Below the pieces are notes generated by a model. The model was not told the DNA's origin. It did no database searches and saw nothing but the letters and a program-made list of their open reading frames with translations. Of a stretch of 64,000 bases of DNA, positions 32,080 through 64,000 are shown one piece after another; the stretch's first letter is position 1, and the number at the start of each line of letters is the position of its first letter. Both the position numbers and the translations under genes were made by a program. The DNA is from Verrucomicrobiales bacterium (GTDB lineage Bacteria; Verrucomicrobiota; Verrucomicrobiia; Limisphaerales; UBA9464), in assembly GCA_027490985.1 (NCBI GenBank), contig JAIXXC010000153.1, forward strand, positions 20,592 to 84,591, read 5' to 3'.

Positions 32080-33183
32080 TCAGGGGTTCCACAAATACGG
32101 AATTGGGTAGACCTCCAAGGCCTGCTCGACACCGCCCGGCCCCAGCACTTTCTCCAGACGTTCACGGATTTCCCGAGCATAGGGGTCGCCGGGAGGCAAC
32201 CGGTCACCTTGGCGCATGGTCCGAGTTTCAGCCTCAGTGATCACCGTCATCGAGGCCTCCAGCGCCTCGGGTGGCAGCTTCAACTGCTCCACCACCCGGG
32301 CCATCTTGCGGTACGCGGGTTGCTCGGTGCGCAAGTAGGCCTTGAAGCGATCGGGACCCAACGCCGACTTCAACCCCACGCCCAAGGAATGGATCCCGGA
32401 GACGAGGGCGATGTCGTCCTGACGACTCTCATCGGTGAGGGTCGGCAGTGCCACCGGTCCGCCGGAGCCTTTGGCGGTGAAGATCGCGCGGAACTCCTTC
32501 TCGTTCGGCTGAAAATAACGCATCTCGTGGGCCAGCGATCGGGAGCGGATGGAATGGCGCAGCTCGAATTCCGCCAACTCTTCCTTGGGAACCTCCCGGG
32601 CCGCGGCTTCAAAGAACTCGCGCTCGGCGGCCTCGATCGCCAACTCCCATTCCCGCGGCCGGGCCGAATCGAACGGGATCGACTGGTGCAACACCTGCAG
32701 TCGCTCGTCCAAGGCCGAAAGCAGCCCGCCTGCGGACACCGATTCCTCTTTCCAGCCGATCTCCGCCAGCAAGGCGGTGGTGATTTGCTGGCGCTCCCGT
32801 TCGAGGGCTTCGGGAGCCAGATACCCCGGGTCCGACGGCCGGAGCGCCTTGCGGGCGTCGAAGCTGGCATTGATGTCGGCCAGCAGGATATTGCGGATAG
32901 TCCCGGGCGGGCACCCGACCTCGCGGAGGTTCCGGAGATAGGTCGGGTAGTTCGTGGAATGGATGCGGGCCCAGTCCAAGCCCACAGCAGCCGGTCCTTG
33001 CGACGACACGGCCGCCTCACGGGGAAAGGCGAGCCGGGTAGCCACCAATTGATCGATGGCCGTCAGCGGGCGGGACCTCTCGAGGGCCTGTCGGGTCAGC
33101 GGGCCGAGGCGAAAGCCGATCAGGATGAAGACCAGGGCCCAAACGACCCCGCCTGCCGAAAAAGGAATGGAGGAAGTTCTCAC
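32080..33183 (-). CDS. Hypothetical membrane-anchored protein (paralog 1 of a tandem pair)
   Basis: 367 aa with one N-terminal TM helix (GGVVWALVFILIGF). It shares blocks with the next gene: W..I.S..Y..YL.NLR.VGCP..TI..I, F.P...EFRAIF.A, LPPE, L...LGP. Confidence 0.65.
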   Translation of the reverse strand: MRTSSIPFSAGGVVWALVFILIGFRLGPLTRQALERSRPLTAIDQLVATRLAFPREAAVSSQGPAAVGLDWARIHSTNYPTYLRNLREVGCPPGTIRNILLADINASFDARKALRPSDPGYLAPEALERERQQITTALLAEIGWKEESVSAGGLLSALDERLQVLHQSIPFDSARPREWELAIEAAEREFFEAAAREVPKEELAEFELRHSIRSRSLAHEMRYFQPNEKEFRAIFTAKGSGGPVALPTLTDESRQDDIALVSGIHSLGVGLKSALGPDRFKAYLRTEQPAYRKMARVVEQLKLPPEALEASMTVITEAETRTMRQGDRLPPGDPYAREIRERLEKVLGPGGVEQALEVYPIPYLWNP

Positions 33184-33225
33184 GGTTCAGGGGATTCTCT
33201 GGGGATGTCTGGGGTTCGTGGCCTT

Positions 33226-34320
33226 TCAGCGTCGACCGAACAGGCCGCTGGGCATCAGCCAACTGTACCGCTCCACGTACGCTGGGTAGCTCGGCCCGAG
33301 GATGGTCTTCAGCCGGGCTTGGATATCGGCGATATAGCGGGTGTCGTAACCGCCCGACATCGAGTAGACGCGCGAGGGATCCCGCGACACCTCGCGTTGC
33401 AGCTTGAAGTAGGCGGCGATGGATTCCGGGGGCAGCGAGAACTCCTCAACCAACGACACGATGCCCGAATAACCGGTTTCCCGGGTCAGGCGGTATTCCT
33501 CATAACGGATGGGCCCCAAGGCCTCCGACAGCGGAATCGGTCGGGAGTCCGGACCCGGCACCCGGGGATCGAGACCTGCCGATTTTGGTTGATCCACCGC
33601 GGCGAAGATCGCCCGGAACTCCGCGTCGGTGGGGGTAAATCGGCGCAATTGCTCCCGAAGTTGCCGCGCGATGGTGGAATGCTTCCGGCGGTATTCCAAA
33701 ATTCCCTCGGCATCGAGGTGCTTGGAGAGGGCCTCCAGGGTTTCCTTTTCCAGGTCCTCGGTCAGATCCCGGGCCTGGGAACCGTCGCGGCTATCGCGCA
33801 CGAGATGCCGGGCCAGAATGGCGTGGGTTTCCAAGATGCCCTCGACGCTGTCGGTTGGTTGAAATCGCGCGAGATCCCGGCCCTCGACATGGGCGAAGAG
33901 GAAAGCGATCAGCTCGGCTTTCTTGAGCACCACGTCCCGTCGGGCCCGCACCGAGTGGGACCAATAGGGCCCGCTGGCCGCAGCGAGTTGGGGTCGGTAG
34001 AGGTCCTCGACGTCGCCCTCGATGATGTCCTTGAGGGTCCGCACTGGGCAGCCGATGCGCTTCAGTTCGGTGAGGTACTTGAGGTAGCCGTCATCGTCGA
34101 GCGAGGCCCAGCGGATGGAGGCGGGAGCGCTGGAGGGTGCCGAGGCTCCCGACTGCGACCGAAACGCGTTAATCCGGCCGTCCAATTGCCGAAGTCCCGC
34201 CGCCGGCGATCCCGCCTCATCCGAGCGCGACACCGGCCGGTTCAGCCACATCCCCAAGACGCCCCCAATCAAGAGCGAGGCCAGGGCGATCGTTATGGGA
34301 CGTATTAGGGAGGGTTTCAT
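33226..34320 (-). CDS. Hypothetical membrane-anchored protein (paralog 2 of a tandem pair)
   Basis: 364 aa with an N-terminal TM helix (ITIALASLLIGGVLGMW). It has the same conserved blocks (YLKYLTELKRIGCPVRTLKDII, FTPTDAEFRAIFAA, LPPESIAAY, RLKTILGP). Confidence 0.65.
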   Translation of the reverse strand: MKPSLIRPITIALASLLIGGVLGMWLNRPVSRSDEAGSPAAGLRQLDGRINAFRSQSGASAPSSAPASIRWASLDDDGYLKYLTELKRIGCPVRTLKDIIEGDVEDLYRPQLAAASGPYWSHSVRARRDVVLKKAELIAFLFAHVEGRDLARFQPTDSVEGILETHAILARHLVRDSRDGSQARDLTEDLEKETLEALSKHLDAEGILEYRRKHSTIARQLREQLRRFTPTDAEFRAIFAAVDQPKSAGLDPRVPGPDSRPIPLSEALGPIRYEEYRLTRETGYSGIVSLVEEFSLPPESIAAYFKLQREVSRDPSRVYSMSGGYDTRYIADIQARLKTILGPSYPAYVERYSWLMPSGLFGRR

Positions 34321-34556
34321 TTTAGGCTAGTACGGCCGGAGTCCAACGATGATCTGATAGTGGATGATACTTCATCGAATTCGCTGAGTCGCCATGGAAG
34401 ACCGTGGGGGCCGGTTTGTGTAAAGACTAAGGGCCACCTTGGTTTCCCACGCAGCCAGCGTGACACGGCAGGCGAGGGTGGCCGACTAATGGCGTGCAGG
34501 CCAGAGGCGCGCTAGATCCTTTCACACTATTTAGCGAGACACCGTCGGTCGCGGCA

Positions 34557-34901
34557 TCACATAAAAGAAGCGCCGCCTTTGATTTGCTTGTAAACAGCTA
34601 GCCTCAAATCAGGATCATCTGATCGGTCGAATTCTCGAACCAATCGACGGAGAGGCAAAGGAAGCTCCATATTCCACTTGAAGCACGCTCTAGCCAATTC
34701 GTGTTGTAGCTGTCCCAAGAGGTCGAGATGGGAACTAGCGGCCTCTATGTTTCGGCTACCGCGAATTTCGACTAGAAGTTGATTGAACTTGAGTTTGAGT
34801 GCCGCTGCTTCATCAGAGGTAAGTTTCTGACCCACGTGTTCCAACGTCACTATTCCAGCAATGAGATCGTTCATGGTTATTTGATTGGCTGTAGATGCCA
34901 C
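34557..34901 (-). CDS. Hypothetical small protein (114 aa), islet gene 3
   Basis: An ORF inside the low-GC islet with a balanced, apparently helical composition and no recognisable motif. Confidence 0.5.
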   Translation of the reverse strand: MASTANQITMNDLIAGIVTLEHVGQKLTSDEAAALKLKFNQLLVEIRGSRNIEAASSHLDLLGQLQHELARACFKWNMELPLPLRRLVREFDRSDDPDLRLAVYKQIKGGASFM

Positions 34902-34998
34902 ACCTCTGGTTCCCCGCTTCCATAAACCAATTTCCAGGCCTATTAGCTAAACAACAGCATTAGCAATGTCAATGCATTTCACGAATCAAAATTCATTG

Positions 34999-35346
34999 TC
35001 AAAGCCGATAATAATCAAAAATCTCCTGTTGTTTGTTTTTTGCATAATCGCCAAATTTTGAGAAATGACTTACGATAGCCATCTTTTGTTCAAGGAGACG
35101 GGCAGGAATCTCAGTTGTATCACTTCGCCTTGCCAACGCGATGAGCGTCTGCGCCACCTCGATGGCGTTGGATTCATCAGACTGACCCAACAATACATCA
35201 ACCGTTGCCCCAATTGCTTCGAACGCCTCCACAGTAGACATACGATTTACAAAGCGTTCCCGAAACTTCACAAAGACCAATTCATCTTCAATCGGATCCT
35301 TGCTCCATTCGCCAATCGCATGCAAAAGCTGATCGTTAAAAGTCAT
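34999..35346 (-). CDS. Hypothetical small acidic protein (115 aa), islet gene 2; candidate immunity or antitoxin partner
   Basis: Its ATG (35346-35344) overlaps the TGA stop (35345-35343) of the upstream 392-aa ORF as ATGA. The composition looks more protein-like than the antisense + ORF 35065..35400. Confidence 0.6.
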   Translation of the reverse strand: MTFNDQLLHAIGEWSKDPIEDELVFVKFRERFVNRMSTVEAFEAIGATVDVLLGQSDESNAIEVAQTLIALARRSDTTEIPARLLEQKMAIVSHFSKFGDYAKNKQQEIFDYYRL

Positions 35347-36521
35347 GGTTTCACAAATTTGAAGTCGACCATCTGCTTAGTCGAGATATTTTCGACGTAA
35401 TGAATTTCAACGTCGTTGACGATTTGAGCGCGTTTCACCCAGCCGTCCGCAGCTAACAGATTGTTTTTCGTGTCAGACATCGGCGGCATTCGCGGAGGTG
35501 TTGTTCCCATCGGATTAGCCATTACCTGTTCCATAGCCAACTTTTCCTTGAGACTGTTGGGGACTGTCCGCCCAGTGCTTATTTTCTTTGCAACCAATCC
35601 TGCAACATCATCCACCTTCCCTGCCATCCTCGCCTTCCCCGCTCCCTTGACCACCCATCCGCCGGTCACATTAGAAGCCAAATGGAAAAGAAAGGCACCT
35701 TCTTTTCGGTAGGCGTCTTCGGGGTTGATCAGGCCGAGACGGCTCTCCCAGTAGGTATTGGCCGTGTCGTCCACCTGGCGCTGGATGGCCGCCATGGTCT
35801 GATCCCAATGGACGATGGCTTGACCCATATTCTGGGCTAAACCCACGGCCTCCATCGGATCGAAGACCATGCTACCCAACTCGATAATCCCTTGCACCTC
35901 TTCAGAGGCGGCCCCTGCGGCTCCTTCTAAGCGAAGCAGCATGGCACCCATCACGTCGTCGGGCCTCCTGGATTCTTCGTTCTTCAGCGAGAAGACCGTC
36001 GCCTTGGGAACGAATTGGATCTCCAGTCGGTGGCTTGAGGACAGGTTTTCAAAGGGTCGTCCTACCGCGCCCGGTGAAGGCATACCGATATCTTCCGATT
36101 GGAACTCGTACTCGAACAGCTTATCGACGGCACCCGCCTTGTAATACCACAGACTGTACCCTCCCCCGCTGCCATCGCGGCGGTAGTACTTCACCGATCG
36201 ACGCTCCACCAAGACGTCACGACCATCCTTCGCCGATGGATTGGAGTAACGGGCCACTATGTTGGGGTCGGTGTACAAGGAACAGATCCCCATCCTGGCG
36301 AACGTGCTATTCGGTCCGTAGTAGGTCATCCGAATGAACCCCAAGATCCCTCCGTCCACCGGAAGGGAAAGGCCCACACACAAATTCCGGGGATGGAGCG
36401 GTCGGGCAGGTTTCAAACAAGGGCCCGCGGTCGGACTCCAGGTCAACTGAGATTCAATGGCCATGGGCACCCGAGGTGTCGGGCTGTTGGAGCAAACTGC
36501 CGACGACCCACCCCGAACCAC
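35343..36521 (-). CDS. Hypothetical protein (up to 392 aa), islet gene 1; the C-terminal ~80 aa look like a polymorphic-toxin-type module
   Basis: This is the longest ORF in the islet. The start is uncertain: GTG at 36521, ATG at 36464 or ATG at 36329. There is no signal peptide and no Rhs/YD, PAAR, LXG or VENN motif. The C-terminus reads GRTVPNSLKEKLAMEQVMANPMG...DGWVKRAQIVNDVEIHYVENISTKQMVDFKFVKP. Confidence 0.6.
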   Translation of the reverse strand: MVRGGSSAVCSNSPTPRVPMAIESQLTWSPTAGPCLKPARPLHPRNLCVGLSLPVDGGILGFIRMTYYGPNSTFARMGICSLYTDPNIVARYSNPSAKDGRDVLVERRSVKYYRRDGSGGGYSLWYYKAGAVDKLFEYEFQSEDIGMPSPGAVGRPFENLSSSHRLEIQFVPKATVFSLKNEESRRPDDVMGAMLLRLEGAAGAASEEVQGIIELGSMVFDPMEAVGLAQNMGQAIVHWDQTMAAIQRQVDDTANTYWESRLGLINPEDAYRKEGAFLFHLASNVTGGWVVKGAGKARMAGKVDDVAGLVAKKISTGRTVPNSLKEKLAMEQVMANPMGTTPPRMPPMSDTKNNLLAADGWVKRAQIVNDVEIHYVENISTKQMVDFKFVKP

Positions 36522-36586
36522 TGGGCTGGGAACTGAGGATTACCGCCGGTCAGGCGACCGCGATGCACCGACTCGGTGCAGCCGAT

Positions 36587-37750
36587 TCAAAGCGCCTGGC
36601 GATACAGGCGTTCGAAGTCGGGGGCGGTGATGGGGCGGGGGTTGAAGGTGGCTGTCCACTGCCGCGAGGCCTCCTCGGCCAGGAGCGGGATCCGGGCCGG
36701 ATCCACGCCGGCGGCCGTGAGCGTTTCGGGGATCTCCGCCAATTGCAGCCAGCCCTGAAACCGGTCGGCCAGCACCGAAGCCGCGGCCTCGGGCGAGATG
36801 TCGGGGCCGGTCCATCCGGCGGTGGCCGCGAGGTCGGCATAGATACCTCGGACCTCCGGGTCGGCCGCGTTGAAGCGGATCACCTGCGGGATCATCAGCC
36901 CGACGGCCGCGCCATGAACGATGCCGAAATGCGCGGTGAGCGGATTGGCCGCCGAGTGGGCCGCGCCCAACATGGAGTTTTCGATGGCCGTGCCGGCCAT
37001 CGCCGCCCCCAGCAGCATGCGGCCGCGGGCCTCGAGGTCGTCGGGCGAACGCAGCACGGTTTCCAAGGCCCCGGCGCACAGTCGGAACGCCTCCCGCGAG
37101 AACATCGACGACCACACCGTGCGGCGCGTGGTGACGGCCGACTCCACGGCATGGACCAGCGCATCGAGACCGGTCAGGGCGGTGACGCGGCGCGGCTGCG
37201 ACACCGTCAATTCGGGGTCGAGCAGGGCGATGCGCGCGGCGGCCTTCGGATCCAGACAGGCCATCTTGTGATGGGTGACCTCGTCGGCGATGAGCGCCGC
37301 GCTCTGGCATTCGCTGCCGGTGCCGGCCGTGGTGGGGATGGCGATGAGCGGCAGCATGGGCCGGGTGGCCTTGCCGACCCCTTGATAATCGCGCATCTCG
37401 CCGCCTTGGGTGAGCAGGAAATTCACGCCCTTGGCCGTGTCGATCGAGCTGCCGCCGCCGAGGCCCACGAACAAATCCACCGAAGCGCCCCGGGCCGCCT
37501 CGAGACCCCGGGCCACATCGAGGGTCGTCGGATTTTCGCGCACCGCGTCGAAGACGCTCACTGCGAGACCGGCCGCCTGCAACCGGCTCACGGCCCGGGC
37601 CGCATGACCCGCACGCACGATGCCCGCATCGGTGACCAACAGCACCCGATGTCCGCCCAGACCGGCGGCCAGTTCGCCCACCCGATCGAGGCTGCCGGCT
37701 CCGAACACCACACGGGTGCGCAAGGTGCTGTCGAAGGAGGGAAGCGTCAT
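36587..37750 (-). CDS. Iron-containing (group III) alcohol dehydrogenase
   Basis: Trimmed to MTLPSFDSTLRTRVVFGAGSLDRVGE. Motifs: GLGGGSSIDTAKG, IPTTAGTGSE, and His-rich metal site blocks (HAVES..., AAHSAANPL). Confidence 0.85.
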   Translation of the reverse strand: MTLPSFDSTLRTRVVFGAGSLDRVGELAAGLGGHRVLLVTDAGIVRAGHAARAVSRLQAAGLAVSVFDAVRENPTTLDVARGLEAARGASVDLFVGLGGGSSIDTAKGVNFLLTQGGEMRDYQGVGKATRPMLPLIAIPTTAGTGSECQSAALIADEVTHHKMACLDPKAAARIALLDPELTVSQPRRVTALTGLDALVHAVESAVTTRRTVWSSMFSREAFRLCAGALETVLRSPDDLEARGRMLLGAAMAGTAIENSMLGAAHSAANPLTAHFGIVHGAAVGLMIPQVIRFNAADPEVRGIYADLAATAGWTGPDISPEAAASVLADRFQGWLQLAEIPETLTAAGVDPARIPLLAEEASRQWTATFNPRPITAPDFERLYRQAL

Positions 37751-37848
37751 GCGTGAGCGGAAGACTCGGTCAGCGGGCGATATCTTCAAGCCGGGCATTC
37801 AAGAAATGGATTGAACGCAACGGCACTTCCGCGGTCCCTAAGGGCGTG

Positions 37849-38202
37849 ATGACTTCGCGCGCTTTCGTCTCCGGCACCGCCGGATTGCTGCTCGCCCTCG
37901 GCGGTCTGGGCTGCATCTCCCATCAGGAAACCATCCGCCACGATGAGGAGCGCCTGCCGATCTCCTTCGAGACCGATGCGGCGGCCCGGACGTTCTATGA
38001 GGCCGTCGAGAAGATCCGCACCTCATCGACCCCGACAGAGAGCAAGACCGAGTTCCACATCCCGGTGATCCTGTCGCACAAGATCACCACCGTGAACGGA
38101 CCCCATCAGGTCTTCAACGAAGCGGTGCGCCGCGCCGACACCGACCGCGACGGCAAGATCACCGAGAAGGAAGCCCGCATCTTCGCCGACAACGCCCGGT
38201 GA
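37849..38202 (+). CDS. Small lipoprotein with a canonical EF-hand Ca-binding loop
   Basis: Trimmed to MTSRAFVSGTAGLLLALGGLGC (lipobox-like). DTDRDGKITEKE matches DxDxDGxIxxxE exactly. Confidence 0.6.
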   Translation: MTSRAFVSGTAGLLLALGGLGCISHQETIRHDEERLPISFETDAAARTFYEAVEKIRTSSTPTESKTEFHIPVILSHKITTVNGPHQVFNEAVRRADTDRDGKITEKEARIFADNAR

Positions 38203-38333
38203 TCGCCCGCTCCCGGTCGCCCCAACCGCCGCTCGTGGAGATCGGAACCCGGGCCGTGGGGCTGAGGACTCGTGACCTGTACCCCGGGGCTTGGGGATTG
38301 CCCGCACCCCGTCGAACGCTCATCCTGAGCGCC

Positions 38334-39044
38334 ATGACGTTTCCCGTCCTGCTGGCGGCCGTGTCGCCCACCAACGGCACGGCTCTGCCGACCGCCGCTC
38401 CGGCCGAGGCCGCCGGTGGCGGCTTTGGGATCCTCTTCTGGCTGCTGACCCTCCTGGCGGGTGTGGCGCTGAGCGTCATCATCGAGCGCCTGCTGTACTA
38501 TCATCGGGTGCAGATCGATTCGGCCCAGTTCCTGGCCGGCGTGCGCAACGTGCTCAAGCGCGACAATGTCATCGAGGCCATTTCCATCTGCGACGCCACG
38601 CCCGGGCCCGTCTCGCGTCTGGTCAAGTCGGCCATCCTCAGCCGTGATGCGGGTCGCGAACGCATCCAGGAGGCGATCGAAGAGGTGGGCTGGGTGGAGG
38701 TGCCGCGCCTCGAGGCCAACCTGCCCCTGCTGGCCACCTTCGCCCAGATCGCGCCTCTCATCGGCCTGCTCGGCACACTGGTGGGCATCGGCGGCACGTT
38801 CCGGCGCCTCCAGACCGGCCCCGGATTCGCCGCACCGGCCGAACTTTTCGCCGGGGTGTGGCAGGCGCTGTACACCGCCGGCCTGGGCATCGCCATCGCC
38901 GCCGTGTGCTACGCGGCCTACAACTACCTCGTGGCCCGGGTCAACGCGGTGGTCCTCGACATGGAACGGGCTTCGGCCGAGGCCGTGAAGATGGTCACCC
39001 AGACCGCCGAGACGGCCGCCACCAAACCTTCCGGAACCCCATGA
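38334..39044 (+). CDS. exbB: MotA/TolQ/ExbB-family proton channel
   Basis: Trimmed to MTFPVLLAAV.... It has three TM segments and the conserved LATFAQIAPLIGLLGTLVGI block. Confidence 0.85.
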   Translation: MTFPVLLAAVSPTNGTALPTAAPAEAAGGGFGILFWLLTLLAGVALSVIIERLLYYHRVQIDSAQFLAGVRNVLKRDNVIEAISICDATPGPVSRLVKSAILSRDAGRERIQEAIEEVGWVEVPRLEANLPLLATFAQIAPLIGLLGTLVGIGGTFRRLQTGPGFAAPAELFAGVWQALYTAGLGIAIAAVCYAAYNYLVARVNAVVLDMERASAEAVKMVTQTAETAATKPSGTP

Positions 39045-39487
39045 AATTCACGCGGACCCTCAAGCCGCTGAAGGGGCAGTTCGAGTTGGCGCCCTACCTG
39101 TGCGTGGTGTTCGTGCTGCTCTTCTTCATGCTGTTCGGCGGCTACCTGGTGCTGCCGGTGGGGACGCGTCTGGAGTTGCCCGCGGGCGGCACCCGCATCG
39201 GAACCTGGACGGGCGATCCATTCCTCGTGGTGGCGGTCGACGCGGGCGAGCAGTGCTATTTCGAAAACCAGATCGTGCCCGATCTGGGCGTGCTCAAGGC
39301 CCGCCTGAGCGCCCGGGCCGGCGCACCGAAAGGGCCCCGCAAGCTCTACCTGCAGGCCGATCGCTCGGTGCGCTACGAGCGGCTTCAAGAACTCGCCGGC
39401 CTGGCCCGCGAGGCCGGACTGTCGGAGATCGTGCTCGGTGGCAGTGGCAGTGGCAGCAACGGCTCACCCACCCCGACGACTCCATGA
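39041..39487 (+). CDS. exbD: ExbD/TolR-family protein
   Basis: ATGA overlap with exbB. It has a single TM helix (LAPYLCVVFVLLFFMLF) followed by a periplasmic domain (LYLQADRSVRYERLQELAGLAREAG). Confidence 0.8.
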   Translation: MKFTRTLKPLKGQFELAPYLCVVFVLLFFMLFGGYLVLPVGTRLELPAGGTRIGTWTGDPFLVVAVDAGEQCYFENQIVPDLGVLKARLSARAGAPKGPRKLYLQADRSVRYERLQELAGLAREAGLSEIVLGGSGSGSNGSPTPTTP

Positions 39488-40245
39488 CCGCCCCGAACCC
39501 CGGATGGAGCTCCCGCCGCTGGATCGGCGTCACGGCCCTGCTGACCTTGCTGCATGCGGGTGGATTCTGGCTGGTGGCCCGCTTCCCCGGAGGACCGAAC
39601 CTGGGTCGGACCGACGCATTCGCCGTGGTCTGGTCGACCACCTCTCCCGATCCTCTGGAAGGCACCCTGTCGTCACCCACGCGGTTCGCCCTGCCCGAGG
39701 CCGGTGGGTTTTCGGGGGATGCCGCGCAGGCCTTGCCGCCGGTGACCTATGGGTGGGGTCGAACCGAACCCAAGCCCTCGTTCCTGCCGGCCGACCCCGC
39801 CGGGTCCAACCTCGGCCCGCTGCCGCCGACACCCGTTCCTCCGGCCCGATCGACCGACCTGCGCACCGCTGCGCCCACCTCCGACAGCCTGGCCCGCATC
39901 ACGCTCGAACACACCCGTGTGGACCTCCTTGGGGCACTGGCCCAGAGGGGCTTGATGCGGCCCCTGAAGGCGACGGTCTGGACCGAGGGCGATTCGCCGC
40001 AACCCACCCGGATCGAAGTGGCGGTCAACCCGTGGGGCGAGGTGATCACCGCGCGCGTCACGGTCGGATCGGGGTCCAAGGCCGCCGATCTGGCCGCCCT
40101 CGAGGCCGTTTGGAACGCCCGGTTCAACCCGCTTCCGCAGGCCCGACAAGCCGATGCGCTGCAGGCCGATCCGCTGACCTGGGGCCTGGTCAGCATCCAT
40201 CCGATTCCGGGCGCGCCTCCCCAGGGACCCGCCCACCCGCTCTGA
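39484..40245 (+). CDS. TonB-like energy-transducer protein (TonB C-terminal domain)
   Basis: ATGA overlap with exbD. It has an N-terminal TM helix, a Pro-rich middle and a C-terminal block VAVNPWGEVITARVTVGSGSKAADLAALEAVWNARFNP. Confidence 0.7.
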   Translation: MTAPNPGWSSRRWIGVTALLTLLHAGGFWLVARFPGGPNLGRTDAFAVVWSTTSPDPLEGTLSSPTRFALPEAGGFSGDAAQALPPVTYGWGRTEPKPSFLPADPAGSNLGPLPPTPVPPARSTDLRTAAPTSDSLARITLEHTRVDLLGALAQRGLMRPLKATVWTEGDSPQPTRIEVAVNPWGEVITARVTVGSGSKAADLAALEAVWNARFNPLPQARQADALQADPLTWGLVSIHPIPGAPPQGPAHPL

Positions 40246-40251
40246 TCGACC

Positions 40252-40476
40252 ATGCAGCCGGAAACCGTCATCGCCCTGTGGGTGACCCTGCTCCTGGCGG
40301 GGTTGGGATTCCTCGCTCTGGTGGACGAATTCCGCCGGCGGCGCATCGGATCGGATGTGTCGCAGGATCAGGTGTTCCGCTGCGTGCGGTGCAGTTCGGT
40401 CTACACCGACGACGCCGAGGTGGAGCGGTCGCGCTGCCCTCAATGCGGCAAGACCAACGAGGCCGTGCGCTTCTGA
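40252..40476 (+). CDS. Small membrane-anchored zinc-ribbon protein
   Basis: 74 aa with a TM helix (VIALWVTLLLAGLGFLALV) followed by CVRC...CPQC. Confidence 0.55.
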   Translation: MQPETVIALWVTLLLAGLGFLALVDEFRRRRIGSDVSQDQVFRCVRCSSVYTDDAEVERSRCPQCGKTNEAVRF

Positions 40477-40614
40477 AACCCGCTCGGGCACCCCGGCCCG
40501 GAGCGGCCGGCTTTACCATTCCTTCACAAATCTCCCTCACGCTCCACACACGGTCTTGAAGGACTCCGAGTGGACTTGAAGCCACGCTCGAGTCCGGCAT
40601 CGGAACAAAAACCG

Positions 40615-40654
40615 GGAAACCCATGGAAACCCATGGAAACCCATGGAAACCCAT
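40615..40654. repeat. Perfect tandem repeat (GGAAACCCAT)x4, ending 33 bp upstream of the CotH start
   Basis: Read directly. The 10-bp period creates three CCATGG palindromes spaced by one helical turn. Confidence 0.9.
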
Positions 40655-40686
40655 TCCGGACCCGGGTGGTCACTTCAGACACGCTC

Positions 40687-42405
40687 ATGAACCCCAGAAC
40701 CTGGACCTTGTTGACCACCGCCGTGTGGTCGCTGGCGATCGCGCCGACCTCCCTTGCGCAGAATGACGCCGACCGCCCCCCGGGGCCGCCTCCGGACTTC
40801 GGCGGCCCTCCTCCATTCGGCCCCGGCGGTCCAGGCGGTCCAGGCGGATTCGGGGGTGGCCCCCGCGGTGGCCCCGGTGGCGGCGGGCCCGGTGGACCGG
40901 GTTCGGCTCCGAAGACCTTGCTGGTGAGCCGGTTCGACACGAACGGCGACAAACGCCTCGATGCCACCGAGCGCAAGGCGGCCCGCGATTTCCTCGTGCA
41001 GGAGAAGGCTGCCGGTCGGATCCGAGGCCGCGGACCCGGCGGACGCGGCGGACCCTGGGGCGGTGGGGAGACACCGGTCCCGACACCCGGCCCACGGCTG
41101 ACCCCCGCCGAGGTGCGGAATCATCCGGACACCCCGTTGTACGACGAGGGCACCGTGCGCACCGTCTTCCTGCAGTTCGAGAATGCCGACTGGGAGAAGG
41201 AGCTGGCCGACTTCAACAACACCGACGTCGAGGTGCCGGCCACGCTCACGGTCGACGGCAAGACCTACCGCGAAGTGGGTGTCCATTTTCGGGGGGCCTC
41301 GTCCTATTTCACGGTGGCCGAAGGCCGCAAACGCTCGCTCAACGTGTCGCTGGATTTCGCCCACAAGGACCAGTCTCTCGGCGGCAACAAGACCCTCAAC
41401 CTGCTCAATTCGCATGAGGATCCGTCGTTCCTGCGGACCGTGCTCTACAGCCATGTCGCCCGGGAATACCTGCCGGCCCCGAAGGTCAATCTCGTCCGGG
41501 TGGTGATCCAAGGCGAGAACTGGGGCATCTACGCCAATGCGCAGCAATTCGACAAACAGTTCACCCGGGAGTTCTTCGGATCCACCCAAGGGCACCGGTG
41601 GAAGGTTTCGGGCAGCCCCAATGGGCGCGGCACCCTCGCCTACCTGGGCGACGATCCGGCCCCCTACCAGAAGATCTACTCGCTCAAGGGCAAGGACAGC
41701 CAGAAGGCCTGGAAGGATCTGATCCAACTCACCCGCATTCTCAACCAGACCCCGGCCGACCGACTGGAGTCGGCCTTGTCCCCGATCCTGGACATCGACG
41801 GAGCCCTGCGATTCCTCGCCGTTGAAAACGCCCTCATCAACAACGACGGCTATTGGATCCGCACCAGCGATTACGCGCTCTATCAGGACCCCAACGGCCG
41901 ATTCCATGTGGTGCCGCACGACATGAACGAAGCCTTCAACCGCGCGGGCGGTCCCGGCTTCGGCGGCGGGCCCGGTGGACGCCGGGGGCCCGGAGGTCCC
42001 GGGGGTCCTGGAGGTCCGACTGGGGGCAACCGGGTGGACGGGGTGAAGCTCGACCCGCTGTTCGCCGCTCACGATGCCAACAAGCCCCTGATCTCCAAAT
42101 TGCTGGCGGTTCCGACCCTGCGCGAGCGGTATCTGAGCCATGTCCGCACCGTGGCCGAGCTTTCCCTCGACTGGCAGAAGCTGGGACCCCTCGCCGAACG
42201 CCTCCACACGCTGATCGCCGACGACGTGAAGGCCGACGGTCGGAAGCTCGACTCCACCGAAGCCTTCGACCGGAGTCTGACCCAGGATACGGCGGGCAAT
42301 GGGTTCGGTCCGGGAGGCGGAGGGACGATGGGGCTCAAGCATTTCGCCGAACAGCGACGGGCCTATCTGCTCGGAGACCGCCCCCCGACGACGCCGTCAC
42401 CCTGA
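40687..42405 (+). CDS. Secreted CotH-family (atypical kinase fold) protein with Gly/Pro-rich tracts and an EF-hand-like loop
   Basis: Trimmed to the signal peptide MNPRTWTLLTTAVWSLAIAPTSLAQ. DTNGDKRLDATE is EF-hand-like. CotH blocks: VPATLTVDGKTYREVGVHFRGASS, LNLLNSHEDPSFLRTVLY, NNDGYWIRTSDYALYQDPNGRFHVVPHDMNEAF. Confidence 0.8.
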   Translation: MNPRTWTLLTTAVWSLAIAPTSLAQNDADRPPGPPPDFGGPPPFGPGGPGGPGGFGGGPRGGPGGGGPGGPGSAPKTLLVSRFDTNGDKRLDATERKAARDFLVQEKAAGRIRGRGPGGRGGPWGGGETPVPTPGPRLTPAEVRNHPDTPLYDEGTVRTVFLQFENADWEKELADFNNTDVEVPATLTVDGKTYREVGVHFRGASSYFTVAEGRKRSLNVSLDFAHKDQSLGGNKTLNLLNSHEDPSFLRTVLYSHVAREYLPAPKVNLVRVVIQGENWGIYANAQQFDKQFTREFFGSTQGHRWKVSGSPNGRGTLAYLGDDPAPYQKIYSLKGKDSQKAWKDLIQLTRILNQTPADRLESALSPILDIDGALRFLAVENALINNDGYWIRTSDYALYQDPNGRFHVVPHDMNEAFNRAGGPGFGGGPGGRRGPGGPGGPGGPTGGNRVDGVKLDPLFAAHDANKPLISKLLAVPTLRERYLSHVRTVAELSLDWQKLGPLAERLHTLIADDVKADGRKLDSTEAFDRSLTQDTAGNGFGPGGGGTMGLKHFAEQRRAYLLGDRPPTTPSP

Positions 42406-42520
42406 ACGACCCGTTGCGACCCGGAACGCCTTCAGCGACGCGGGGTGGAATCGCGGTTCCACTCCGTGCCTCGGCCGATGAGCGGTTGGCTTTTTCCACG
42501 GGGTCCTCTCCACTCCTGCC

Positions 42521-43738
42521 ATGAGCGAAACGCTCCGGTTCCTGCAATCCTGTCCGTCCGACGAAGACATCGATGTCGTCCGGTTGGTCGACCTGGTGAT
42601 CGTCGATGCCGTGCGCTCCGGGGCGAGCGACATCCACATCGAGCCCTGGGAATCGAGCATCGCCGTGCGGGTGCGCATCAGCGGCGTGCTCAATGAGCTG
42701 ATCCATCTGCCCAGCGACCTGCTGCCGAAGATCACCGGCCGTCTGAAGGTCATGGCCAACCTCATGGGCCATGAAACCCAGCTCCCTCAAGAAGGCCGTG
42801 CCAACACCTTCCCGGAGGCGGGCAACGTGGTGCTGCGCATCTCGACGTTTCCGACGATCCGCGGTGAGAAGACCGTCATCCGCATCTTCGACCCCTCGAA
42901 CCGCGCCTTCAATCTGGAGGCCCTGGGTCTCGAGACGGATACCCTGGAGACCCTGAAGGGACTGCTCACCCGGCCCAGTGGTCTCATGCTCATGACCGGG
43001 CCTACCGGCTCCGGCAAGACCACGGTGATCTACGCCTCGCTCTGCCACCTCATCGAGCGGGCCGGCCCGAGCATCAGCATCGCCACGGTCGAAGACCCGG
43101 TGGAGTTCACGCTGCCCCTGATCGCCCAGTCGCAGTGCAACGCGGCCCGCGACTACACCTACCCGGTGGCCCTGCGCTCGCTCATGCGGCAAGACCCCCA
43201 GGTGATCATGATCGGCGAGATCCGCGATGCCGAAACGGCTCAGATCGCCGTCCAAGCGGGCCTGACCGGGCATCTGGTCATCAGCACCATCCACTCCGGC
43301 AGCACCACCGGAGTCTTCGCCCGGCTCATCAACATGGGCATCGAACCCTTCCTGCTGGCCTCCTCGATCACGGGTGTGCTGGGGATGCGATTGATCCGAC
43401 GCAATTGCCCGGTGTGCCTCGAACCCTACCGTCCCGATCCGGCCGTGCTGTCGTGCGTGCCGGCCGAGATGCGGGAGACGGCGCAGTTCCACCGCGGGGG
43501 CGGTTGCCCGGCCTGCAACCACACCGGGTTCAACGGACGCTCCACGGTCATGGAGACCCTGAAGGTGGACGAGACCCTGCGCGATGCGGTGCTCCAGAAA
43601 CTACCCACCCGGCGACTCCAGGAACTCGCCCAGACTCAAGGGATGGAAACCCTCTGGCAGGCCGGCCTGCGACGGGCCCTGCGGGGTGAGACCACGCTGG
43701 AGGAGATCCTGCGGGTCGTGGGCATGGAAGGATTCTGA
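42521..43738 (+). CDS. GspE/PilB-family secretion ATPase (short form lacking the N-terminal domains)
   Basis: Walker A GPTGSGKTT, the Asp box, Walker B VIMIGEIRD, the His box STIHS, and tetracysteine CPVC...CPAC. Confidence 0.85.
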   Translation: MSETLRFLQSCPSDEDIDVVRLVDLVIVDAVRSGASDIHIEPWESSIAVRVRISGVLNELIHLPSDLLPKITGRLKVMANLMGHETQLPQEGRANTFPEAGNVVLRISTFPTIRGEKTVIRIFDPSNRAFNLEALGLETDTLETLKGLLTRPSGLMLMTGPTGSGKTTVIYASLCHLIERAGPSISIATVEDPVEFTLPLIAQSQCNAARDYTYPVALRSLMRQDPQVIMIGEIRDAETAQIAVQAGLTGHLVISTIHSGSTTGVFARLINMGIEPFLLASSITGVLGMRLIRRNCPVCLEPYRPDPAVLSCVPAEMRETAQFHRGGGCPACNHTGFNGRSTVMETLKVDETLRDAVLQKLPTRRLQELAQTQGMETLWQAGLRRALRGETTLEEILRVVGMEGF

Positions 43739-57655: not shown

Positions 57656-60607
57656 TCAGCGCTTGGCGCGGATGAACAGCGCAGCGCCATCCACCGTGAT
57701 CTCATCCCCGCTCTTGATGGCGGAGTCGGCATAGGTGCCGTTGAGGGTGGTGGAGGTCTGCAGCGTGCCCGTTCCGTCGAAGGTGATCTTCACCTTGCCG
57801 TTGGCACCGACAGCCGCCTTCAGGTTGCTGACGGCCGAGATGACAGGAGCCACGTTGAAGTCCCAGTAGGCGATCAGGCCCTTGGAGGCCGGGAGGGCCG
57901 TCGGGAGGGTTCCCTTGGACAGGGCGACCACGTCGGCCTCGACCAGCTCCTTACCGAAGACCGAGAAGTCATCGATGATGGCTCGGCTCAGCTCAGCGCC
58001 GTTGGCACCGGAGCCCATGTAGAAGGCGTCGATGTCGACCGGCAGCTTGGCCGTGTTTTCGCCCGACAAGAACAGCTGACCGTCGATCCAGATGTTCTTC
58101 GAAGCACCCTTCTTGGTGAACACGAACAGGTGGTAGGCGTTGGTCCACCAGGACGCGTTGCCGGAGTATCCGGGGAAGGTCTGGATGTCGGCCGAGATGC
58201 GCTGGGTGGCGCCGTCGCAGCAACCCACGGTATCGAAGTAGATGTTCTGGTTGCTCCACGGCGTGTGGCTGTGGAAACCGCGGTTGTTCGGGCTGCCCGG
58301 GGAGTTCATCGTGAACGCAGAGCTGTCGGAGATGTCGAGACGCTTCTGCCAGAACGCGATCGTGAGCTCATCGTTGGCCGTGGCGGCGTTGACCTTGGCC
58401 AAGAAGTCGCGATTGAAGCTGACCACCGGACCACCCTTCATCGTGAGGTTGATGGCCTTGTCGCCCGCCTTGCCGGTGGCGCCAGCGGCATCGTCCGTGA
58501 AGACCGCCGAACCCATGAGCAGGCCGGGGTAGCCACCCACCTTGTCCGCGGTCGTGCCGCTGTAGGCACCCGTCGTGAAGGTGTAGTCGTAGGTCGCAGC
58601 CTTGCCACCGGCATCGAGGTAACCCAGCGAGACGGTGTGGACCGACAGGCTCGCGGCCAGAGCCGGCGGGGTGTACTTGATGGTGACGATGTTGCCGTCC
58701 TTGGTGACGGTCGGGGTCACGGTCTGGCCGTCGTACTTCAGGCTCACGTTCTGGGCAGTCCAGGCCGTCTTGCCGTCGCGGTGCACGATGGTGATCGAGG
58801 CCGCGGGGCTCACGCCCTTGGCGTTCGCGGCCGGGCTGATCTGGGTGTAGGCACCAGCCGGATCCGCCGGGAGATCCACGGCGGAGCTCAGGAACTTGCC
58901 CGCGATCGGGGTCAGCTTGTTGGCAGCCGTGGTGTCGCCTTCTTTGCGCCAGGCGATCTGGCCGTAGTCACCGCCGCCGCCCTCCTTGTAGACCATGCGG
59001 ACGAAGTACTTCTTGCCGGCGGTCAGAGCAACGGGCTCCGAAGTGCGCGGGCTGTCGGGCTCGGTGAAGAAGTTGCAGCATCCGGTCTCCTCGGCGATCT
59101 GGGCCAGATTGGCCTCCTTGTCGTCGGAGCTGATGAAGAACTGCGAGGCGTCATCCGAGTAGATGAAGAAGCGGTAGCTGCCGCTTTCGGACGGGGTCAG
59201 GAAACCTTCCATCGACGCACCGTAGTTGTCCTTCGAGTCGTTCGGCAGGGCATCGCGGCTGTTGAACGCGAACACGGCGGCCGTCATGTCCGGAGAAGCC
59301 GGCCAGCGGGGATCCTGGTAGAGGTTGTCCACCGGGGTGCCGTTGATGCCACCCCAGAACGAGAACTTCAGCACGCCATCCTTGACGTTCAGGAAGGAGT
59401 AGAAGCTGGCCGTGCTGTTGGCGGCGACCGCGTTCTTGGAGGTGTCGACCACGTTGTTGACGGTGACCGTGTAGGCCACGGCGCCCGGGGTCTGGGCGGC
59501 GGTGGTCAGAGTCACCACGTTCTTCTTCACGGCCGCGGCGGAGACCGCGAGGTTCGGGCTGAAGGAGTAGTTGGCCAAGGTGGTGGCCGAGGCGGCGTCG
59601 ACGGCCTCCGAGAAGGTCAGCGTGACCGTCTTGAAGTCACCGGCGGTGCTCGCCGAGACGAGCACCGGCTTGGTCACGTCGATCGGGTTGGTGCCGGCCT
59701 GGAACTCCTGAAGGTTGGTCGCACCGTCCTTGTCGAAGTCGAGGGCGGCATCGGCGGCGCTGTTCGGGTTGAAGCCGTAGTCCTGTTCCCAGGTGTCGGG
59801 CATGCCGTCCTTGTCGGTGTCCACCGGGGGGGTGCCGATCGGGCCGCCTTTGACGATGGCCTGAATGTCCTTCTGCGACAAGGCTCCCTTGAAAATGGCG
59901 AAGTCGTCGATGATGCCGTCGGGTGCGTTCTTGTCGCTGGCCGCTCCGATGAAGAGCTGGGTGAAGTCGGTGGGCAGCGGAGACACGCCTTCGGTCTGCT
60001 CGGCGAGCAGCTCACCGTCGACGTAGATCTGCTTGGTCTCCTTGTTCTTGACGAAGGCGTAGTGGTGCCAAGTGGTCCAGTCGAAGCCCTCAGCAGCGGC
60101 CTGATCGAGGCGCTGGGACGGAGCCGAGCAGCAGCCGTTGCTGTCGAGATAGATGCGGCCGTTGGACCAGGGCAAATGGGCCTGGATGCCGCGGCCTTGG
60201 CTCGCGGCGACGAACCAGAAGGAAGAGCTGTTGACGTTGGAGAAGTTCTTCTGCCAGAGCACGATCGACACGGCGTCGTCGGCCGCGGCGAGATTCATCG
60301 GGTTGGCGTCACCCTCGGCTTCCACCAGGATGTGGCCCCGGGCGCTGTTGGCCTGGGACACGTCGAAACCACGACCGCCACCCGGGCGACCGCCGCCCGC
60401 CTCGGTGATCTTGGCGGCATCGTTGATGGTGCCCACGTACTTGCCGTTGGTGGACTTGATGGAAACGCCGTCGGCTTCGACGCGCTCGAAATCCCAGTAC
60501 GCGAGGACCGGGGGGGTGGATTGGGCTTGCGCCGCAACCGTGCCCAGGGTGAGGGCGGCCAGACCGGCGAGGAGCCGGTACGAGGCCTTATTGGGGTTTT
60601 GATTCAT
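57656..60607 (-). CDS. Large secreted multidomain protein: LamG/concanavalin-like lectin domains, thrombospondin-type-3-like Ca loops, Ig-like domain and PA14-like domain
   Basis: Trimmed to MNQNPNKASYRLLAGLAALTLGTVAAQAQ. Two or three LamG-like blocks recur (IVLWQKN...W..YAFV, IAFWQKR...H..VFT, DDFAIF/DDFSVF). DTDKDGMPDTWE...DFDKDGATNLQEF is present. The PA14-like stretch is GFLTPSESGSYRFFIYSDDASQFFIS. Confidence 0.75.
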   Translation of the reverse strand: MNQNPNKASYRLLAGLAALTLGTVAAQAQSTPPVLAYWDFERVEADGVSIKSTNGKYVGTINDAAKITEAGGGRPGGGRGFDVSQANSARGHILVEAEGDANPMNLAAADDAVSIVLWQKNFSNVNSSSFWFVAASQGRGIQAHLPWSNGRIYLDSNGCCSAPSQRLDQAAAEGFDWTTWHHYAFVKNKETKQIYVDGELLAEQTEGVSPLPTDFTQLFIGAASDKNAPDGIIDDFAIFKGALSQKDIQAIVKGGPIGTPPVDTDKDGMPDTWEQDYGFNPNSAADAALDFDKDGATNLQEFQAGTNPIDVTKPVLVSASTAGDFKTVTLTFSEAVDAASATTLANYSFSPNLAVSAAAVKKNVVTLTTAAQTPGAVAYTVTVNNVVDTSKNAVAANSTASFYSFLNVKDGVLKFSFWGGINGTPVDNLYQDPRWPASPDMTAAVFAFNSRDALPNDSKDNYGASMEGFLTPSESGSYRFFIYSDDASQFFISSDDKEANLAQIAEETGCCNFFTEPDSPRTSEPVALTAGKKYFVRMVYKEGGGGDYGQIAWRKEGDTTAANKLTPIAGKFLSSAVDLPADPAGAYTQISPAANAKGVSPAASITIVHRDGKTAWTAQNVSLKYDGQTVTPTVTKDGNIVTIKYTPPALAASLSVHTVSLGYLDAGGKAATYDYTFTTGAYSGTTADKVGGYPGLLMGSAVFTDDAAGATGKAGDKAINLTMKGGPVVSFNRDFLAKVNAATANDELTIAFWQKRLDISDSSAFTMNSPGSPNNRGFHSHTPWSNQNIYFDTVGCCDGATQRISADIQTFPGYSGNASWWTNAYHLFVFTKKGASKNIWIDGQLFLSGENTAKLPVDIDAFYMGSGANGAELSRAIIDDFSVFGKELVEADVVALSKGTLPTALPASKGLIAYWDFNVAPVISAVSNLKAAVGANGKVKITFDGTGTLQTSTTLNGTYADSAIKSGDEITVDGAALFIRAKR

Positions 60608-60849
60608 AACTCGGGAGTTGATGAGGTTGACGCTCCCCAATTCAGGCCTATCTATGCATCCTGAGCATTCTGGTGCGGACACCATTCGGCCTGACGAGGC
60701 CTTCAGCTCGTGGTGCTTGAGCGGTCTTAACGGGGGTAACTGGGGCAGTGCATACGAAACGCCACGGAGCCACAAGCGAAAACGTGATCGGACGGATCAC
60801 AAAGTTATTCACACCCTACCGGAGCGCCACCCCGGGATCGGGCGGAGTG

Positions 60850-63800: not shown

Positions 63801-64000
63801 CCTCGAGGTTGCCGTTGAGGGCGGGGACTCCGAGGTAGCGATCCTTCGGTTCGATCACCGTGCTGCCGTCGGGCTGGCGACGCTGGACGAACCGGCCGCC
63901 TTTGGGCGGATCGTGGAAGGTGTCGGTGCGGTAGTGGGTGACATACACGTCGAGATCCCCGTCGCCATCGACATCGGCCAAGGCCATCGACGTGGCCCCC
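60850..64000 (-). CDS. CRTAC1/ASPIC-UnbV-family protein with many FG-GAP/VCBS repeats; the N-terminus lies beyond the window end
   Basis: The frame stays open upstream of the listed Met at 63987 (…GATSMALADVDGDGDLDV). FG-GAP loops are repeated (DLDGDHQPDL, DINRDGHDDF, DLDNDGDLDV, DVDGDGRLDL, DFDGDGHEDL...). There are two ASPIC/UnbV-like modules (RGNTAGIGARLKVTGG...GGRYLSGDQ and GNPEGVGAVIRL...AGSGFRSQDS). Confidence 0.8.
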   Translation of the reverse strand, partial: GATSMALADVDGDGDLDVYVTHYRTDTFHDPPKGGRFVQRRQPDGSTVIEPKDRYLGVPALNGNLEVLERGEPDAFYINRGGTNVVVAPWNVGLFLDERGQALSDAPRDWGLAVMFRDLDGDHQPDLYVCNDFVHWPDRLWLNRGKRFQAAPDFALRNQPLSSMSMDAADINRDGHDDFFVAEMLSPRGDDRARQRPDTLDGVVRWPVERPQFRPEVTRNALQLGRGDGTWAEIAQFAGVAATDWTWSAAFLDVDLDGWEDLLLTTGNLHDVQDIDAQSRIIREGLWKTPETRQRALALLPPRNTPSMAFRNRRDLTFEDTGARWGFDQRGFAHGMAFGDLDNDGDLDVVVNVLNGPARVLCNGSPAPRLAVRLKGARGNTAGIGARLKVTGGPVSQTQEMISGGRYLSGDQAVRVFAAGQARHLQVEVTWRNGRRTVVGGLEPNQLVEIEERDTLDPSPVPTLPQPLFEGLVTDPDPVPREPDATEWERQPLLPRRLGTEAPGLTWADWDADGDPDLLISADEDGRFRVLRNDGPAGFVPETGALAVAMGAADRPGALQVLVQRQGVTPPRILTGLSNVKAALAQAPRFHSWSLQSGQAVVATNAPADEATTGAMALADVDGDGRLDLLVGARSRAGRYPETSETVLLPGQISGWGKPITITKSTRTSGAVFTDVDADGDPDLVLAGDWDTLRLFRNEGGRWVEATAESGLGAWRGLWNGVGAGDFDGDGRLDLVASNGGRNWRVDSPGRISAPVRLVYGEFHEPARILTLLASTDPSGDRDRPWRSWSALSQAIPALAERVQSHREFAALSLDSLLGPLAARAQSLSADTFDSMVFLNRGGRFEGRPLPVEAQWAPAFGISIVDFDGDGHEDLFLAQNFFGMDVETARQDAGTGLVLLGDGRGGFRSLSPREAGFSLPGEQRGSAVADLDGDGRPDLAVGQHAGKTRILRNRAGKPGVRVALEGSPGNPEGVGAVIRLVMGERLGPAREIHAGSGFRSQDSPDTVLAAPETPTALEVRWPGGLTQRRPWPPSARSVVVSETGLRQRQ

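Follow-up and report, generated by a model that had tools for sequence, protein, structure and literature searches.

Loss of the 5′ end of a predicted polymorphic-toxin gene beside intact putative immunity genes at a variable chromosomal site of freshwater Verrucomicrobia

The window analyzed in this study, a 64-kb stretch (64,000 nucleotides) of contig JAIXXC010000153.1 from a Verrucomicrobiales bacterium, contains a 392-aa open reading frame (ORF) that is coupled to a 115-aa ORF. We consider it likely that these are a polymorphic-toxin gene that has been deleted at its 5′ end and the intact immunity gene of this toxin. The region would form the variable terminal part of a polymorphic-toxin locus in the chromosome of a freshwater Verrucomicrobia lineage, and the intact toxin would be composed, in this order, of a Sec-like leader, a domain of about 280 residues, a Gly/Lys linker that follows the motif GGWVVKG, and a swappable C-terminal toxin domain (CT), with the coupled immunity gene behind it. 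In the window, a deletion of about 430 nt between imperfect direct repeats would have removed the upstream region, the start codon, the leader, and the first ~68 codons; the toxin would no longer be exportable by Sec, and what remains of it is most likely dead or silenced. The intact immunity genes would protect the cell from kin that still make the toxin, and the window copy probably serves as an antidote locus only.

RESULTS

Deletion at the 5′ end of the toxin gene

The full-length orthologues (~400 aa) start with MNSK...LLISVFRASA/QDSGYLPDLPGFPSGTYAQVAAVG, where the slash marks the likely cleavage position. Judged by eye, this start resembles the signal peptide of a Sec substrate and has an AxA site; the cleavage region reads FRASA/QDSG, with the site ASA/QD. 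The window is homologous to these orthologues only from their residue ~62 to 69 onward (the tblastn alignment with one of them, P0001, starts at 36362), and no frameshifted signal peptide was present upstream of the window ORF in any frame. Up to ~36337, the window is collinear with the intergenic DNA that lies downstream of the iron-dependent alcohol dehydrogenase (Fe-ADH) gene in two related loci (L008 and L027), and it then continues with toxin codon ~69. Compared with L027, 429 nt are absent. The crossover is located in GGTT at ~36337-36340, inside the imperfect direct repeat TCCGGTGRMCGGAG...GGTT(T)CAT, and the lost segment comprises an AT-rich stretch just upstream of the start, the start codon, the signal-peptide-like leader, and 68 codons. 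Because the window is collinear with intergenic DNA of its relatives, the 392-aa protein begins with ~60 residues that are translated from intergenic DNA. The 392-aa protein described in an earlier note on this DNA therefore stands as an ORF but not in its first ~60 codons (36521..~36341), as no homology was found before residue ~62.

The same junction is present in a contig of the Joint Genome Institute (JGI), L001, that is 99.8% identical to the window, and it is also spanned by contigs of four separate studies, which in three cases do not differ from the window at all; an assembly artefact at the junction was rejected on these grounds. The window allele thus has no N-terminal secretion or trafficking element, whereas the full-length orthologues have a leader. 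The earlier note had taken the missing signal peptide as a possible mark of an intracellular, abortive-infection-type effector. This view was not supported: since the orthologues at the same site have the leader and the window has lost ~430 nt, and since no defence model matched, we attribute the missing signal peptide to the deletion and not to a new intracellular mode.

A sister allele with a different CT, found in two samples (L027, 877-2115; L028, 41-1189), has kept the leader and has a stop at codon 100 (VAG*SNPS), so that gene callers report two ORFs, of 99 and 299 aa. We read this stop as a second, independent inactivation in which the downstream genes have been retained.

Distribution of the C-terminal domain

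In a search with the whole ORF, ~28 proteins matched only the last ~20% of the query, with identities of 43 to 88%, and their N-termini were of the RHS repeat/YD-shell, PT-VENN, PT-HINT, MafB, or PT-TG type. When 1.84 billion representative proteins were searched with a profile, Rhs proteins of 1507 and 2396 aa that end in the CT and DUF637/Fil_haemagg proteins with the same ending were found in addition, and in the closed 6.4-Mb genome OZ260079.1 the CT sits on a 737-aa Rhs-like protein. One C-terminal module is therefore carried by unrelated delivery scaffolds. In the homologues, the module begins with ISTGRT and finishes with DFKF(K/V)x, and the residues that are invariant in two alignments (A2 and A4; numbering of the ORF) are S315, T316, G317, R318, E326, D350, G360, W361, V362, K363, E372, H374, Y375, and N378. 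A search with the CT only was of little further use, as it returned chiefly orphan fragments of short length. We assign the last 79 residues to an unnamed family of polymorphic-toxin C-terminal domains. The earlier note had likened this region to such modules without naming a family and had proposed looking for homologues fused to other N-termini in toxin contexts, and the fusions to Rhs, PT-VENN/haemagglutinin, MafB, and PT-HINT N-termini bear this out.

Two further observations were made on CT-bearing proteins. Residues 572-724 of a haemagglutinin-repeat protein of 726 aa (P0197) combine a match to just the first half of the Pfam Ntox10 model (positions 11-100 of 193) with the CT, in which the protein ends; the Ntox10 model may therefore span two separable modules. 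In the closed 6.4-Mb genome, a DarT/Macro pair of the DarTG type (2164-3888 of locus L026) is located ~3 kb upstream of the CT-bearing Rhs-like gene.

N-terminal domain, synteny, and cassette exchange

The same whole-ORF search returned ~70 proteins that matched only the N-terminal 50 to 70% of the query (43 to 99% identity) and had other C-termini. More than 70 homologues share residues ~1-300 and carry at least 10 different CTs, so that a conserved N-terminus is joined to unrelated alternative C-terminal toxins in close relatives. The C-termini on this N-terminal family comprise the known toxin domains Ntox10 (PF15520), Ntox5 (PF15533), a barnase-type ribonuclease (PF00545), and colicin E5 (PF12106), as well as unnamed ones. 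The family members diverge past the junction GGW(V/K)(V/I)KG. The window toxin itself shows 93% amino acid identity to P0001 over residues 62-400.

The intact N-terminal domain has ~280 residues and appears to be beta-rich and then helical. The AlphaFold2 (AF2) model of a full-length orthologue, made with 27 sequences, had a mean confidence (pLDDT) of 40.8 and was unusable; it was too poor to be used in a structure search. In the profile search of the 1.84 billion proteins, the domain was found in 18 clusters of its own family only, and all eight species-representative genomes that carry it are Verrucomicrobia metagenome-assembled genomes, the named sources of which are lakes and rivers. We therefore suggest that it is a new, lineage-specific family that occurs only in freshwater Verrucomicrobia, in line with the option of a new N-terminal domain that had been put forward in the earlier note.

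All related contigs whose length takes in the neighbors have the toxin gene at one chromosomal site. Upstream, ExbB/ExbD/TonB-like genes come first, followed by a 117-aa gene and the Fe-ADH gene, whose syntenic counterparts in L001-L011 are annotated with PF00465/PF13685/PF25137. Downstream, there are two conserved genes of 364 and 367 aa, with identities of 70 to 97% in all syntenic loci that reach that far. On the Fe-ADH side, window positions 38000-36555 align with the L001-L011 loci at 85 to 97% nucleotide identity. The contents of the island between these flanks vary: L002 has Ntox10 and Imm27, L005 has colicin E5, and L008 and L011 have the CT of the window and the 115-aa gene, with or without a 105-aa gene.

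The nucleotide homology to the Ntox10 allele of L002 ends at 35644, right past GGWVVKG, and resumes at ~34387; for the loci with other CTs as a whole, it resumes at ~34387-34417. The segment that holds the cassette (35798-34300) is 93% identical at the nucleotide level to L008, the toxin protein of which is just 57% identical overall. Because the cassette is conserved to this degree while the N-terminal part cannot be aligned at the nucleotide level, an exchange of the cassette is indicated, and it appears to move between strains via recombination at the junction. The GC content dips to 41 to 50% over 34600-35500, and over the whole cassette it is 41 to 54%, compared with ~65% in the flanks. 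The drop in GC content and the many homologues of both proteins argue that the feature is not due to chance.

The cassette is itself a mosaic. Compared with L011, the rate of synonymous substitution (dS) is 0.30 for the N-terminal domain and 0 for the CT (80 of 81 residues identical), whereas the immunity gene has a dS of 0.37 and 83% amino acid identity, and there seems to be a recombination breakpoint between the toxin and immunity genes. The ratio of nonsynonymous to synonymous rates (dN/dS) does not date the deletion. The window and L001 differ at eight positions, seven of which cluster in 52 nt (35511-35562) at the start of the CT and change KEKLAME to KEQLAME and MANPMG to MAKPMG. The cluster resembles what a short tract of gene conversion with another CT allele as donor would leave.

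Immunity genes

On every type of scaffold for which the locus was read, the gene right behind the CT, at a distance of 0 to 4 nt, encodes a homologue of the 115-aa protein; in the loci named next, the two genes overlap or are 2 to 3 nt apart. The identity to the window protein is 92% and 83% in the Verrucomicrobia orthologues (L008 and L011), 72% behind an Rhs scaffold (L012), 67% behind the Rhs-like scaffold of the closed genome (L026), and 37% (E 2e-28) behind a PT-HINT scaffold (L024). The homologue behind the MafB scaffold (L023) was found with an E-value of 8e-9 and that behind the PT-VENN scaffold (L014) with an E-value of 3e-4, and the latter is 58% identical to the MafB-linked protein. 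Over all CT-linked homologues the identities range from 22 to 92%, and they are connected through significant transitive E-values. Because a homologue directly follows the CT on each scaffold read, a small gene immediately downstream travels with the toxin domain, and we suggest the 115-aa protein as the cognate immunity protein of the CT. The interpretation of the two ORFs in the earlier note as a toxin and its immunity partner is thus supported. Furthermore, the two partners have opposite charges: the CT (last 81 residues) is basic, with a pI of 9.6, and the 115-aa protein is acidic, with a pI of 4.9.

None of the 40 database homologues of the 115-aa family has a Pfam domain. However, a profile of the family (A5) matches chain A of PDB entry 8TZM (8tzm_A, 115 aa) end to end with an E-value of 3.7e-30; the window protein alone matches it with an E-value of 8.9e-5 over 82 of 115 residues. 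The immunity proteins most similar to chain 8tzm_A are those found with MafB and VENN toxins. The PDB profile matches of the 115-aa protein comprised 8TZM and designed helical repeat proteins, which is consistent with an all-helical fold. The entry was deposited as "Type I site-specific deoxyribonuclease," no toxin complex was among the PDB deposits found, and a literature search on 8TZM returned no relevant paper. Two immunity homologues (P0128 and P0130) are named "rhamnose utilization protein RhaD" by JGI. All these names look wrong, and that of 8TZM looks like a carried-over misannotation.

The 105-aa protein encoded further downstream is 100% identical to proteins of L001 and L008-L010, all of which have a precomputed match to the CdiI-like family PF28101, although the window ORF had no match in the Pfam copy searched here. 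Against the PDB, it matched only the CdiI protein of 5i4q_B, and weakly (E 0.82). Since the gap between the 105-aa and 115-aa genes is just 124 nt, no toxin fragment precedes the former. The gene is missing from L011 and L015, both of which have the same CT. We read it as a putative orphan CdiI-like immunity gene.

Organization of the locus and neighboring genes

The features of the locus are listed in Table 1. The ATGA that joins the toxin stop to the start of the 115-aa ORF on the coding strand reads TCAT on the plus strand (35343-35346), and the Gly/Lys-rich linker TGGWVVKGAGKARMAGK and the C-terminal sequence that had been quoted for the 392-aa ORF were both confirmed in it. The ORF coordinates, the overlap, the linker, and the acidic partner agree with the earlier description. 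Neither the toxin ORF nor the two small ORFs had a significant Pfam, NCBIfam, or PADLOC match, and the whole 392-aa protein gave nothing significant in a PDB sequence search. As had also been noted, the Pfam, NCBIfam, and PADLOC models revealed no Rhs, PAAR, LXG, VENN, or haemagglutinin repeats in the 392-aa ORF, and none of the 20 long ORFs scanned across the rest of the window was a gene of a type VI (T6SS) or type VII (T7SS) secretion system or of a TpsB/CDI (contact-dependent inhibition) system. A scan for promoters and terminators gave no signal that exceeded the expectation from shuffled sequence.

TABLE 1 Positions in the window of the toxin locus, its parts, and its flanks
Feature	Position	Strand	Remarks
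Predicted toxin ORF, 392 aa	35343..36521	(-)	Stop codon 35343-35345; GTG start at 36521
Putative cognate immunity gene, 115 aa	34999..35346	(-)	Start overlaps toxin stop (ATGA)
Putative orphan immunity gene, CdiI-like, 105 aa from ATG 34874	34557..34874	(-)	ORF extends to GTG 34901
Fe-ADH gene	36587..37798	(-)	Conserved upstream flank, outside the toxin system
ADH-toxin intergenic remnant	36341..36586	(-)	Collinear with intergenic stretch 9520-9768 of L008, ~90% identity
Deletion junction	36318..36373	(-)	Three-way comparison, alignment, blastn
N-terminal domain remnant, lineage-specific	35643..36340	(-)	Residues ~69-301 of full-length orthologues; ends with GGWVVKG
Gly/Lys/Ala-rich linker AGKARMAGKVDDVAGLVAKK	35583..35642	(-)	Directly past the point where alleles diverge
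Predicted toxin C-terminal domain (CT)	35346..35582	(-)	ORF residues 314-392 (79 residues)
Exchangeable low-GC cassette (linker, CT, immunity gene, orphan immunity gene)	34388..35643	(-)	GC content, homology breakpoints
Two paralogous downstream-flank genes	32080..34320	(-)	364 aa at 33226..34320; 367 aa at 32080..33183

The 364- and 367-aa proteins of the downstream flank are 26% identical to each other, had no Pfam or NCBIfam match, and each have a hydrophobic, possibly membrane-spanning N-terminus. On the upstream side (38199-43738, plus strand) there are the ExbB/ExbD/TonB-like genes, a gene for a CotH-family protein (40570-42405), and one for a T2SSE-family ATPase (42521-43738), in an order that is kept in relatives. 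A dedicated role of the ExbB/ExbD/TonB and T2SSE genes in export or uptake of the toxin was considered and rejected, as there is only synteny of core genes. In the lineage that shares the cassette, a Y1 transposase gene (PF01797; 14577-15527 of L008, with a counterpart in L009) is located just past the 367-aa gene. At both ends of the window, large probable surface or secreted proteins are encoded, at 57656-63987 and 3057-4667 (-), with FG-GAP/ASPIC and Laminin_G_3/PA14/Big_5 domains.

Structure and possible activity of the C-terminal domain

An AF2 model of an 85-aa fragment with the CT had a pLDDT of 86.9 and is composed of one helix (17-28) and three long strands (54-61, 64-71, and 77-82), with short bridges. 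With this model, Foldseek gave no match with an E-value below 0.1 in the PDB or BFVD; the best PDB match had an E-value of 1.6, and the ribonuclease (RNase) Sa2 ranked 15th in the list with a TM score of 0.31, which is not significant. Foldseek is known to be weak for domains of such a small size. A profile of the CT only had no match in the PDB, a profile with flanks matched only Rhs cores, via the flanks, and 20 CT sequences searched against Pfam at E-values up to 10 gave only noise. The window CT has no Cys, and the family has no invariant Cys, metal-binding motifs, or hydrophobic segments. In the model, the invariant E-x-H-Y, K, and R are mapped to adjacent strands.

Considering the small size and basic charge of the domain, its acidic partner, the lack of conserved Cys and metal motifs, and the invariant E-x-H-Y, K, and R residues, together with the helix-plus-sheet model, we tentatively propose that the CT might be a small metal-independent RNase, and our best guess is that such an enzyme would use E372 and H374 with R318 and K363. 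The short CTs of polymorphic toxins are dominated by RNases of this kind (PMC3482391). In the BECR fold, a helix at the N-terminus precedes a meander sheet of four strands (PMC3482391). Like the RNases with this fold, the CT is small and basic, its model has an N-terminal helix and then an antiparallel sheet, and it has invariant residues of acid/base type (E372, H374, Y375, K363, and R318); however, the model has three long strands only, and no match in sequence or structure was obtained. The model is compatible with a BECR fold and does not establish it. The nuclease-type activity that had been guessed at from the sequence is therefore plausible by size, charge, and residues but found no match by Foldseek or in the PDB or Pfam.

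DISCUSSION

The architecture of the locus, the sharing of its modules, the co-occurrence of the CT and the 115-aa gene, the synteny, and the deletion are all observed directly in the sequences compared. Several points nevertheless weigh against the interpretation of the window gene as a dead remnant with working immunity genes. We infer from sequence the toxicity of the CT, its neutralization through binding of the immunity protein, the Sec export of the intact form, and the loss of function in the window; the signal peptide of the orthologues was called by eye only, and looks like one; and the RNase assignment draws only on size, charge, the invariant E/H/K/R/Y residues, and the helix-plus-sheet model of a domain that has no match in Pfam or the PDB or by Foldseek. 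The truncated ORF is still open over 331 homologous codons, and its N-terminal part has a dN/dS of 0.18 compared with a full-length allele, with no decay shown. The deletion may just be recent, and a residual function of a product from an internal start is possible. Some transcription of the window, or of a nearly identical allele, is indicated by metatranscriptome contigs that cover the CT, both immunity genes, and part of the N-terminal region and are 99 to 100% identical to the window on 35417-36040.

The open frame, the low dN/dS, and the RNA contigs, together with the wide and stable occurrence of the truncated allele, are what could be expected if a truncated protein made from an internal start (GTG 36521, ATG 36329, or ATG 36293) formed an intracellular toxin-antitoxin or abortive-infection pair with the 115-aa protein. 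We consider such a pair very unlikely. Its N-terminus would have arisen through the deletion of a Sec-type leader that is present in orthologues of the same locus, the native upstream region is gone, and none of the metatranscriptome contigs crosses the junction. Moreover, no PADLOC or Pfam defence model matched, the CT family is on secreted scaffolds wherever the N-terminal domain can be named, and the stop codon of the sister allele points to loss and not to repurposing. We give equally little credence to the proposal that the truncated gene is a silent reservoir that could recombine with a full-length paralogue at another genomic site and thereby be restored or donate its CT. Homology for recombination could come from the conserved N-terminal sequence and the GGWVVKG junction, exchange of the cassette clearly occurs, and the differences clustered in 52 nt of the CT are like those left by gene conversion. 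However, all family members for which the locus was read sit at this one site, and there is no second copy within the 64-kb window. The 5′-deleted polymorphic toxin with intact immunity genes is thus the explanation that we prefer.

With regard to the CT, an activity other than that of a nuclease, for example on a membrane, a protein, or a small molecule, and possibly with a new fold, seems somewhat unlikely to us. It would be in keeping with a confident model that has no significant structural neighbor in the PDB or BFVD and with the lack of a sequence tie to any Pfam toxin family, although the weakness of Foldseek for small domains reduces the weight of the former. A basic domain of 79 residues with an acidic partner, without invariant Cys, metal motifs, or hydrophobic segments, and with invariant E-x-H-Y, K, and R on adjacent strands fits the profile of the small metal-independent RNases better. 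The broader proposal that the N-terminal domain is a new delivery module specific to Verrucomicrobia, which after Sec export would take diverse toxin domains from the producer into neighboring cells by a route unrelated to T5SS, T6SS, T7SS, or colicin-type uptake, and that the CT is in addition a new-fold toxin outside the known classes of activity, is in our view unlikely.

Verrucomicrobia are abundant in lakes and rivers, and to our knowledge almost nothing is known about how they compete. The locus would add three unnamed families to the repertoire of polymorphic toxins: a CT family that is common to Rhs, CdiA-like, MafB, and HINT toxins of different phyla, an immunity family that already has an unpublished structure (8TZM), and an N-terminal carrier domain that is specific to Verrucomicrobia and has no detectable relatives. 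Many toxin cassettes succeed one another at a single fixed site of the chromosome. The toxin appears to have been lost repeatedly, by deletion in the window and by a stop in the sister allele, while the immunity genes were kept, which would make the site a natural example of a producer versus an immune nonproducer. The window also suggests that a toxin can seem "signal-less" because the allele that was read is truncated.

Compared with abortive-infection and type II toxin-antitoxin systems, the locus has no significant PADLOC match, and its neighbors are core genes in conserved synteny. In contrast to those systems, a cytoplasmic location of the window protein would not be by design, because it is the result of the deletion. 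Among known structures, PDB 8TZM chain A is a member of the immunity family by profile A5.

The locus has the same interchangeable module of CT and immunity gene as the CdiA-CT/CdiI and Rhs-CT/RhsI systems, and its third ORF is CdiI-like. As in the CDI and Rhs proteins, a sharp motif demarcates the variable region, although this motif is GGWVVKG instead of VENN or DPxGL. Orphan CT-immunity modules occur in CDI and Rhs loci. However, in contrast to CDI systems, no haemagglutinin repeats, VENN, or CdiB were found in the protein or in the window ORFs scanned, and the same is true of the YD/Rhs repeats, PAAR, VgrG, and T6SS genes of Rhs and T6SS effectors.

The polymorphic toxins of the "T2SS" class of Zhang et al. 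(2012), which are exported by means of a signal peptide alone, already include Ntox10-Imm27 toxins of Verrucomicrobia (PMC3482391). The present family has in common with them a conserved N-terminus, recombining CT cassettes, a downstream immunity gene, and orphan immunity genes, and the sister allele in L002 is exactly an Ntox10 with Imm27. It differs in that its N-terminal domain, CT, and immunity family have no Pfam model or name and in that the window copy has lost the signal peptide by deletion.

The MafB toxins of Neisseria have a signal peptide, a MafB N-terminal domain (PF06255), a variable CT, and MafI immunity proteins. The N-terminal domains of the two families show no similarity in sequence: no PF06255 is present on the window protein or the N-terminal family, and no MafB was among the N-terminal profile matches. 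No MafA-like gene adjoins the locus. Both systems, however, have a Sec-type leader in the intact form, a lineage-specific N-terminal domain of ~300 aa, a variable CT, and a small immunity protein, and some MafB proteins bear this very CT together with a homologous immunity gene. We therefore suggest that the intact family belongs to the Sec-dependent class of polymorphic toxins and that its architecture is closest to that of MafB.

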